From the NCBI GenBank assembly GCA_046314695.1, contig JBKDBI010000464.1, positions 1 through 53,263 of the forward strand: DNA of 53,263 bases, written 5' to 3'. Position numbers and translations under genes: made by a program. The notes below the pieces were generated by a model. That model was given only the letters and a program-made list of their open reading frames with translations. It ran no database searches and was not told the DNA's origin. Source of the stretch: Bacteroidota bacterium. GTDB taxonomy: Bacteria > Bacteroidota > Bacteroidia > NS11-12g > UBA955. Shown here one piece after another: positions 40,415 to 41,108 of this stretch; the first letter of the stretch is position 1, and every line of letters begins with the position of its first letter.

Positions 40415-40889
40415 GGGAACTTCCTTGGGTCCGTCGGACCCGGTGCGCCCCGTTCACGCGGGGGCGGTCGCGGCCAGCGGACCCCGCGCCAGCGTAGGCT
40501 GGGGATCGGCAAGCCAAGAACAATAGGCATTCTGTCCGATCGGGTCAAGTTTGCGAGGGTATAACTTGCATGCGTCTTACCCCTAGCCCATCTAGGTTAC
40601 AGTGGGGGCAAGCAGGCGGCCCGGGCGGGTGGCACACCCCCCGGCTCGCGGCCTTGCGGCGAGCGGAAACACCCCACCCCTCTCAAAATTCCTACCCTAA
40701 CGACTCGTTCTCCTTCCGTTAGTACCCCTGCCTCCCCATTCCTCCCTTTTCGTGCCTCCCTGGCTTGGGGAGGGAAGCCCATTTAGGGAGGCAGATTTTC
40801 GCTCCTTCCGCACTCCCTCCCCGCCACGTTCGCCTCAGTTACCCCCCTCACACCCCCACAATCGTCACAAATCGCCACACGTTCTCTTT

Positions 40890-40908
40890 GGGGAGGGACT
40901 CCCTCCCC
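40890..40908. repeat. Perfect palindrome GGGGAGGG-ACT-CCCTCCCC
   Basis: Read directly from the sequence. It lies 10 bp upstream of the AT-rich patch. Confidence 0.9.
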
Positions 40909-41023
40909 AACTACAACTCGTTTTTTTGACACCTGAAAAATATATATAAGGAAGTTGTGGCCCGCCTTCCACCTCCCCGTCCCTCCCCACCCTCTCCCGC
41001 ACCCTAACGCCCTCAACGAAAAA

Positions 41024-41038
41024 CCCCCACTCAAGGTG
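41024..41038 (+). repeat. Signature motif copy (plus strand)
   Basis: CCCCCACTCAAGGTG. It forms a 14-bp inverted repeat with 41072-41085, giving a 34-nt loop. Confidence 0.95.
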
Positions 41039-41070
41039 CTGGTTGCCTGTCACAAGACAAGCCACCAACA

Positions 41071-41086
41071 AACCTTGAGTGGGGGG
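41071..41086 (-). repeat. Signature motif copy (minus strand)
   Basis: AACCTTGAGTGGGGGG on the plus strand, ending 22 nt outside the stop codon of the helicase gene. Confidence 0.95.
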
Positions 41087-41108
41087 TCTCCCTATCCACC
41101 AATCCACC

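Follow-up and report, generated by a model that had tools for sequence, protein, structure and literature searches.

A candidate SaPI-type replication origin downstream of an SF3 helicase gene in an uncultured freshwater phage lineage

The intergenic region and its flanking genes

The 53,263-nt contig JBKDBI010000464.1 (assembly GCA_046314695.1, listed under Bacteroidota bacterium) is a fragment of a phage genome with a G+C content of 61%. The whole stretch is termed here the window. Positions 40415–41108 form a 694-bp gap between a gene for a superfamily 3 (SF3) helicase and the first of a series of leftward early genes. A preliminary description of the window proposed that this gap is a bidirectional replication origin and/or a divergent early promoter region. 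The analysis presented here points to an origin of the type known from the pathogenicity islands of Staphylococcus aureus (SaPIs).

The helicase gene is on the minus strand at 41109–42512, with its stop codon at 41109–41111. From the ATG at 42512, which has a GAAGGA Shine-Dalgarno sequence, it encodes 467 aa (database entries have 444–465 aa). The first early gene (39896–40414) is also on the minus strand and encodes 172 aa from an ATG at 40414 that is preceded by AAGGAAG. This gene is strain-variable and does not display the skew of its neighbors. The gap itself has no coding signature. Open reading frames inside it show flat GC1–3 values (0.48–0.69 at position 3 vs. 0.74–0.84 in real genes) and share conservation with the closest relative alone, simultaneously in several frames; they are therefore considered non-coding, and the possibility of coding sequences inside the gap was rejected.

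Read in the sense of the helicase gene (minus strand), the gap starts after the stop codon with a hairpin made of two 13-mers and followed by five uridines (U5). Next are the motif CGTTAGGGT at 41001–41009 (minus strand) and a pair of iterons, GGGGAGGTG and GGGGAGGGA on the minus strand, at 40970–40988; the aligned position in a related contig, L005, carries GGTAGAGGGT. An AT-rich core at 40915–40953, a candidate DNA-unwinding element, contains a T7 run, TGACACCTG, A5 and (TA)4. Abutting it at 40888–40910 is a perfect 11-1-11 palindrome, noticed before as 40890–40908, formed by two head-to-head iterons (TTGGGGAGGGA-C-TCCCTCCCCAA). A lone iteron GGGGAGGGA (40814–40822) and a conserved GAACGTG (40825–40831) stand side by side on the minus strand, within 40814–40831. 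They are followed by a distal cluster of five boxes (40729–40793), three in the helicase sense (40729–40737, 40739–40747 and 40753–40761) and two in the opposite sense (40767–40775 and 40785–40793). Further on are an inverted repeat, CTAACG-N14-CGTTAG (40694–40722), which includes the distal motif ACCCTAACG, then a G-rich 24-mer termed block 5, G-rich hairpins, a promoter-like sequence TTGACC-17-TATTGT, and the Shine-Dalgarno sequence and ATG of the first early gene.

The motif GTTAGGG thus brackets the iteron array: the copy at 41001–41009 is a direct repeat of that at 40694–40702, and there is another at 40717–40722. It may serve as a site for a second conserved factor, or for some conserved part of the initiator.

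The iterons are boxes with the sequence CCTCCC/GGGAGG. Ten of them, as originally described, fall within 40731–40988; seven are oriented one way and three the other, and they sit 121–380 bp past the helicase stop. The array is not symmetric: the AT-rich core separates two gene-proximal boxes from eight distal ones, and the first distal pair is head-to-head. A first-order Markov model of positions 40700–41108 predicts 1.65 ± 1.28 boxes, and ten were reached in 0 of 5000 simulations; for the three boxes in the minority orientation P = 0.0004. The 10-mer TGGGGAGGGA has four exact copies in the 53 kb, all at 40766–40989, and 10-mers with one mismatch are scattered singly elsewhere in the window, all but one of them on the locally G-rich strand. 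The AT-rich core stands out in composition: the 35-mer at 40915–40949 has 8/35 G+C, the window minimum, and the next lowest value is 12/35. The preliminary description of it as the only markedly AT-rich patch is thus borne out.

The plus strand is C-rich here, and over the whole window CCTCCC shows mild enrichment only (84 observed vs. 72.6 ± 8.2 expected). The boxes could on this basis be a functionless by-product of composition, a continuation of the C-rich helicase arm where CCTCCC is common. This is very improbable. The local enrichment is about 6-fold over the composition-matched model with three boxes on the disfavored strand, and the density is 24 per kb vs. 1.5 per kb in the equally C-rich flank (41109–46500), where all boxes have one orientation. 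In addition, the boxes have changed in concert at conserved positions in relatives, as shown below.

Related contigs and concerted change of the iterons

A search with the helicase yielded proteins of 88%, 72%, 72% and 27% identity. Their contigs were retrieved and the regions downstream of the helicase gene were aligned (alignment A1). A HMMER scan then showed a large family of stand-alone helicases of about 460–490 aa, with 112 representatives at E < 1e-30, and further contigs were retrieved from it. Scans of IMG/VR and of Joint Genome Institute (JGI) data with the helicase or the helicase alignment gave nothing useful. Contigs are referred to by number (L001 to L016) where they have to be told apart.

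In alignment A1 the AT-rich core, GAACGTG, CTAAC..GTTAGG and block 5 are all conserved. Within the core, TATATATAT...CAAAAAAAC is invariant in L001–L005. Both edges of the box array retain GTTAGG, and in the inverted repeat the alignment columns C399–C403 and G420–G425 are invariant.

The boxes behave differently. In L003, L004 and L005, whose helicases are 72% identical to that of the window, all boxes, those in the two palindrome halves among them, read GGTAGAGGGT/ACCCTCTACC and not GGGGAGGGA/TCCCTCCCC. The change in each box is G-T-A-GAGGG-T for G-G-G-GAGGG-A, i.e. three substitutions repeated at at least five orthologous boxes. The orthologous palindrome in L003 and L005 is GGTAGAGGGTGACCCTCTACC. 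The spacing is retained, and the distance from the start of the first palindrome box to the start of the lone iteron is 86–87 bp in all four species compared. Judged from the alignments, this concerted change has the signature of sites that track a DNA-binding protein. Relatives with the same gene order and without the boxes, which the preliminary description had named as counter-evidence, were not encountered; the boxes persist, and any differences among them are coherent.

More distant members carry arrays of other sequences. L008 and L009 (helicase 37% identical) have two copies of GTCGCTCC, an AT-rich core and then GGGAGCGAC repeats. L014 (helicase 36% identical) has two copies of TGTGAACGA, the core, two copies of TCGTTCACA and two further clusters, with nine copies in total. 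In these three contigs the array begins directly after the helicase stop and a terminator. L008 and L014 match the rule for SaPI origins exactly, with an AT-rich core and at least two oppositely oriented iterons on each side. At 6987–7450 of L014 the GTTAGGG motif is fused to iterons (GTTAGGGTTTTGGTGTGAACG).

The helicase as a candidate initiator

The helicase has an N-terminal collar, an SF3 ATPase domain (Pfam DUF5906) and a C-terminal winged helix (positions ~371–438 of the 444-aa form). PHROG primase/helicase families match it only over their helicase halves. An AlphaFold (AF2) model built with a 60-sequence alignment has a predicted local distance difference test (pLDDT) score of 93.8 and a predicted template modeling (pTM) score of 0.89. 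In this model the last 70 residues have the order alpha-beta-alpha-alpha-beta-beta, which is that of a winged helix.

A Foldseek comparison of the model with PDB gave PriRep5 of SaPI5 (7OLA/7OM0) as the top match, with E-values down to 1.9e-14. The alignments cover 419–427 columns for PriRep5 chains with the C-terminal domain (CTD) built and 332–362 for chains without it, and the N-terminal part of the model aligns with the PriRep5 collar domain. PriRep5 (7OLA) is also the top PDB match by sequence, although a weak one (E = 0.059).

The helicase tail co-varies with the box type. Over alignment columns 396–481 tail identity is 82% and 85% for pairs of one box type and 49% and 45% for pairs of different types, whereas the rest of the helicase is 68%–83% identical between types. 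The predicted recognition-helix stretch differs in each of the four box types. No type-specific drop in identity comparable to that of the helicase tail was seen in TerL (the large terminase), the portal protein, or the neighbors of 274, 161 and 151 aa. The 274-aa gene, which is ahead of the packaging genes, was considered as a possible box binder that had been replaced in the other box type. This was rejected, as a tblastn search finds a 68% homolog in L003–L005 that had merely not been called.

Terminator and early-gene control module

The preliminary description had pointed out a convergent pair of signature motifs. These are confirmed as two copies of the 13-mer CCCCCACTCAAGG, at 41024 (plus strand) and 41073 (minus strand), which form perfect 14-nt inverted arms (41024–41037 and 41072–41085), 34 nt apart. 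Together with an inner stem and the U5 tract (41019–41023) they make an intrinsic-terminator-like hairpin on the minus strand at 41019–41085, 24 nt past the helicase stop. The RNA fold has an energy of −54.3 kcal/mol (z = −5.8), and 0 of 200 shuffled sequences were equally stable. A simple terminator scanner missed the hairpin because the loop is long. In L001 and L002 the arms are kept and the loop is changed, and ordinary terminator hairpins are found in the same position in L008, L013 and L014. The hairpin is best read, from its sequence and predicted fold, as the terminator of the helicase transcript.

The 13-mer has 21 exact copies in the window (431–47419). It is often located 6–9 nt before an ATG, with AAGG(A/T)G serving as a Shine-Dalgarno sequence. 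It shares 11 of 13 positions with CCCTCACTAAAGG, the promoter core of T3 RNA polymerase, yet Pfam and PHROGs revealed no single-subunit RNA polymerase among about 40 open reading frames of the window. The skew profile has steps near copies of the 13-mer at 22110, 30681, 36255, 42774 and 46528.

At the other end of the gap, the sequence TTGACC-17-TATTGT (40520–40548, minus strand) is a predicted sigma-70-like promoter aimed at the first early gene. No other promoter-like site is present in 40000–42800. Block 5, TTTTGAGAGGGGTGGGGTGTTTCC (40665–40688, minus strand), is non-coding and lies at the edge of the flip in strand composition described below. It is kept across the family, with 3–6 mismatches in L002, L005, L008, L013, L014 and L007, where helicases are down to 27%–38% identical. 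Hairpins of the GGGGGCCG type are found 20–45 nt after it. In L016 block 5 is upstream of a leftward gene and the helicase is placed differently; block 5 therefore probably belongs to an early-gene control module and not to the origin proper. The distal third of the gap, consisting of block 5, the G-rich hairpins and TTGACC-17-TATTGT, is by these sequence features a candidate control/promoter module of the leftward, strain-variable early genes.

Variation in these genes begins close by. The Logan contigs of three metagenome runs fork at 40359–40493 into alternative first early genes. At 40359–40522 there is also a 110-bp bubble with two alleles, and the depth of a 12.8-kb block to the right is about threefold that of the window's left-hand variant.

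The promoter-like site and the position upstream of early genes raise the question of whether the whole region serves transcription alone, with the boxes and palindrome as operators for a phage regulator other than the helicase, acting on the early operon, and the AT-rich element as part of a promoter. Palindromic sites suit dimeric regulators, and block 5 accompanies the upstream regions of early genes even with the helicase placed differently (L016). This explanation is nevertheless considered unlikely. The promoter-like site is ~180 bp from the nearest box, and the array, 260 bp in extent, reaches to both sides of the AT-rich core. The AT-rich element was examined as a sigma-70 promoter and rejected, since on either strand the spacers between −35 and −10 like sequences are 9–13 bp, which is not a legal spacing, and a promoter scan gave no match. 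Moreover, the array keeps its place at the 3′ end of the helicase gene across lineages with four different box sequences, and it is the helicase tail that co-varies with the box type. It should be noted that transcriptional control is compatible with an origin; the two are not exclusive. The earlier suggestion of a divergent promoter, on the other hand, does not hold. Both flanking genes are on the minus strand, therefore the region is not divergent, and its transcription signals are the terminator-like hairpin of the helicase gene and a single predicted sigma-70-like promoter that points leftward.

Strand asymmetry

The window shows an extreme strand asymmetry that changes sign at this locus. 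The GC skew goes from +0.31 to +0.53 (28.7–39.6 kb) to −0.48 (40651–42700). The cumulative skew has its maximum at 40632, with a segment boundary at ~40650. Two sharp switches are present in the window, one at 40632–40690 and one at 46536, which is a local cumulative minimum.

Four-fold degenerate sites, scored on the plus strand, show that the asymmetry follows the arm of the DNA and not the direction of transcription. Minus-strand genes at 24–36 kb have G 0.57 and C 0.11 and those at 14–21 kb have G 0.56 and C 0.18; the plus-strand late genes are similar (G 0.48, C 0.26). The values are reversed both in the helicase gene, on the minus strand (G 0.09, C 0.72), and in the TerL gene, on the plus strand (G 0.16, C 0.55). 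The asymmetry is purely one of G vs. C and has no A/T component; A/T at four-fold sites follows the coding strand, and plain cytosine deamination is therefore not the cause. The amino acid composition is reshaped as well, the early proteins being rich in S, P, L and T and the helicase in V, G, E and W.

L007, L013 and L014 also show the flip after the helicase gene, and in these contigs the helicase gene shares its strand with the early genes that follow. This suggests a persistent strand-specific process tied to the locus and favors a landmark of replication. An ancient inversion was considered as the cause of the 5.9-kb block of reversed skew and was rejected, as strong skew is maintained in helicases that are only 27%–38% identical. 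The second switch, at 46536, falls exactly on a plus-strand copy of the 13-mer between the TerL and portal genes.

The polarity of the flip poses a difficulty. By the usual (Lobry) rule the cumulative G–C skew has its minimum at the origin and the leading strand is G-rich. A maximum, as found at 40632, has the polarity of a terminus or genome end. The preliminary description had used the sign change in support of an origin. The change is real, sharp, independent of gene direction and conserved, but because of its polarity and its position off the AT-rich core it is a weaker argument than was assumed.

Following the rule, the region would be a genome end, a packaging-recognition region or a replication terminus. 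The boxes would then be repeats for a packaging protein by a terminal repeat, or a fork barrier; forks would converge here, and the real origin would be at the other switch. The maximum at 40632 and the local minimum at 46536 have the terminus and origin polarities required, and the result is a T7-like layout with an origin about 5.9 kb from one end and early genes reading inward. The packaging genes are 1.5–5 kb away, and seven contigs from four relatives stop 360–651 bp past the helicase stop. These stops are scattered, however, and in this species they coincide with the strain-variant forks at 40359–40493; they therefore mark the start of the hypervariable early genes. Uninterrupted DNA spans the region in the window, in L006 (a JGI contig), in L007, L013 and L014, and in the Logan contigs of three runs. 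A physical genome end as the reason for the ends of the relatives' contigs was accordingly set aside. At 46400–46700 nothing origin-like was found (no AT-rich patch, no repeats), and in relatives the second switch has no fixed position. Co-variation with the box type is not seen in the candidate packaging-side proteins. Finally, with a pure G vs. C asymmetry the deamination logic behind the polarity rule need not apply, and the premise of the Lobry rule may not hold here. An end or terminus at this locus is for these reasons rather improbable. The strand asymmetry is the unusual part of the locus.

Proposed origin

The reading that is favored, with somewhat better than even confidence, is that the gap holds a SaPI-type iteron origin served by a self-loading SF3 helicase and joined to the helicase terminator and a leftward early-promoter module. 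The boxes, the AT-rich core and the helicase tail thus lend comparative support to the origin that was first suggested for this region.

The origin would occupy the helicase-proximal two-thirds of the gap, about 40690–41010, and the SF3 helicase, encoded immediately upstream, would act as its own initiator. Its C-terminal winged helix would recognize the 9–10-bp GGGGAGGGA iterons, which are placed as a pair on the gene-proximal side of the core, a head-to-head palindrome abutting the other side and six further boxes beyond. Hexamers may form on either side of the TATATATA/A7 core, melt it and load themselves. The family-A DNA polymerase of the phage would then extend, and the strong hairpin with U5 would terminate the helicase mRNA.

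Several observations weigh against this proposal. The cumulative minimum that the Lobry rule places at an origin is not what lies at the locus, and forks diverging from here would have C-rich leading strands, the reverse of the rule. The flip at 40632–40690 is about 270 bp from the AT-rich core. No primase was recognized in the window (Pfam and PHROGs; about 40 open reading frames). L013 and L007 cross the region and have the AT-rich core and block 5 with no clear iteron array, and L016, a more distant member of the family, has a different gene layout. The co-variation of tail and box comprises two box types in a close group, with two distant types only described, so that the independent contrasts are few. 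Three raw-read runs from 2026 contain practically no reads of the phage and older runs are available as contigs with flat depth.

If initiation does occur here, the polarity of the asymmetry is opposite to that of the textbook and has no deamination signature, and the phage family would be a useful natural system for the cause of strand bias. A more specific and speculative version, for which the odds are poor, is that an SF3 self-loading origin and a family-A polymerase, with no coupled priming, imprint the pure G vs. C asymmetry, with C-rich outgoing strands, across this uncultured freshwater phage family. The asymmetry could in that improbable case come from the mode of replication or from a strand-specific DNA chemistry tied to replication. 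Block 5 might, on the same doubtful premise, be a functional transition site (e.g. for priming or R-loop formation), loosely comparable by analogy to conserved sequence block II (CSBII) of mitochondria.

The proposed origin offers a concrete pair for testing, i.e. the helicase tail and a 9–10-bp iteron, with a natural swap of specificity (GGGGAGGGA vs. GGTAGAGGGT). It would extend the SaPI model of a self-loading helicase from satellites to full-sized phages, and it would provide an anchor for reading the extreme strand asymmetry of the family, which is independent of gene orientation.

Gene context and distribution

Leftward genes extend from ~12.2 to 40.4 kb and include the helicase gene further on; rightward genes are found from 42557 onward and at 1 to 12.4 kb. 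The ends of the window cut through genes and show no overlap with each other. The large terminase TerL (PHROG 38) is encoded at 44345–46444 (plus strand) and the family-A DNA polymerase at 24274–26547 (minus strand); the latter has matches of only ~26% in cultured phages. A Sak4-like AAA_24 ATPase and a PD-(D/E)XK nuclease at 14636–17480 (minus strand) form a recombination module. Rfam and tRNA scans of the window gave nothing.

The helicase gene (ATG 42512, minus strand) and the gene for the 151-aa protein (ATG 42557, plus strand) diverge, with 44 bp (42513–42556) between the start codons. Their promoters would therefore be inside each other's coding regions, or transcription comes from further away. 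At 43053–44770 (plus strand) there are overlapping open reading frames in different frames, each conserved in relatives (43053–43877, 43649–44134, and 43998 to about 44420). Gene calls in this segment are unreliable, because the C-richness of this strand suppresses stop codons. In the long TerL open reading frame (from 44345) the first ~25 codons look non-coding, while frame 0 from the ATG at 43998 is conserved to about residue 140. There may be a frame change into TerL near 44420–44440, or overlapping small genes.

Among 50,697 phage records, cultured phages gave no DNA match for 39000–43000 and no match for TerL. The phage stretch was detected in about twenty metagenome runs, from freshwater. 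The lineage is thus without a cultured relative yet widespread in freshwater metagenomes. Besides the freshwater runs, eight runs labeled "fungus metagenome" also carry the stretch (0.92–0.94 of sampled words), which could reflect a common water-borne host or shared contamination.

Comparison with known systems

In phage T7, arrays of short repeats flank the ends of the genome. The short-repeat arrays near the junction of late-side and early genes are similar to this, and if the locus were a genome end the origin would be about 11%–15% from that end. T7 differs in that neither a single-subunit RNA polymerase (Pfam and PHROGs; about 40 open reading frames) nor a terminal repeat was detected in the window, and in that genes here are on both strands.

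Origins of the lambda type (O protein) and of iteron plasmids also have iterons and an adjacent AT-rich unwinding element. The initiator in those systems, however, is not the helicase, the lambda ori is inside the O gene, and host DnaB is recruited.

The core origins in polyomaviruses, such as that used by the large T antigen of simian virus 40 (SV40), and in papillomaviruses (E1) have palindromic short G-rich sites (GAGGC in SV40) by an AT-rich tract, where two SF3 hexamers are nucleated and unwind DNA bidirectionally. The palindromic G-rich sites adjoining the AT tract are a likeness, but only as a functional analog. The origin-binding domain of those proteins is N-terminal and has a different fold from the C-terminal winged helix, and these are eukaryotic viruses with no sequence relationship to the phage.

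The alpha protein of phage P4 combines a primase, an SF3 helicase and a C-terminal origin-binding domain and recognizes iterons in its own ori. A second cis site, crr, at a distance of about 4.5 kb is required in P4, whose ori does not lie immediately 3′ of the alpha gene. An SF3 helicase with a C-terminal DNA-binding domain for the iterons of its own origin is what is proposed here as well. In contrast to P4, there is no fused primase (no primase Pfam match, and only the helicase halves of the PHROG families align), and no second cluster like crr, exact box 10-mers being confined in the window to 40766–40989.

The closest parallel is with SaPIs. Their Rep proteins, SF3 (or MCM-like) helicases, serve as initiators themselves, and the winged helix of the CTD binds iterons of 5–6 nt (PMC9371898). 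A SaPI origin has 6–12 iterons immediately downstream of the rep open reading frame, with an AT-rich segment near the middle and at least two oppositely oriented iterons on each side (PMC9371898). In the cryo-electron microscopy structure of PriRep5 on its origin, the CTDs hold and bend the DNA (bioRxiv 10.64898/2026.10.17.759575).

The locus differs from SaPIs in several respects. It is in a phage genome of roughly 53 kb or larger and not in a satellite; its iterons are G-rich and 9–10 bp long instead of 5–6 bp; the array is asymmetric (two vs. eight boxes), with a perfect palindrome flush against the AT core; no primase, whether adjacent or fused, was detected; and the helicase is only 14%–15% identical to PriRep5. 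It has extra conserved motifs (the GTTAGGG brackets, GAACGTG and block 5), and an extreme flip of strand composition is attached to it. The similarities are in organization. The candidate origin is immediately downstream of the helicase open reading frame, and short iterons flank an AT-rich center on either side, both orientations occurring among them. Their number, ten, is within the range of 6–12, and an array just past the open reading frame is also present in L001–L005, L008 and L014. The helicase has three tiers, i.e. an N-terminal domain, an SF3 ATPase and a CTD with a winged helix, and PriRep5 is its best structural match. As in SaPIs, the iteron sequence and the CTD differ between related elements. 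As judged from its sequence and from the predicted helicase model, the locus resembles the SaPI type in both structure and position.

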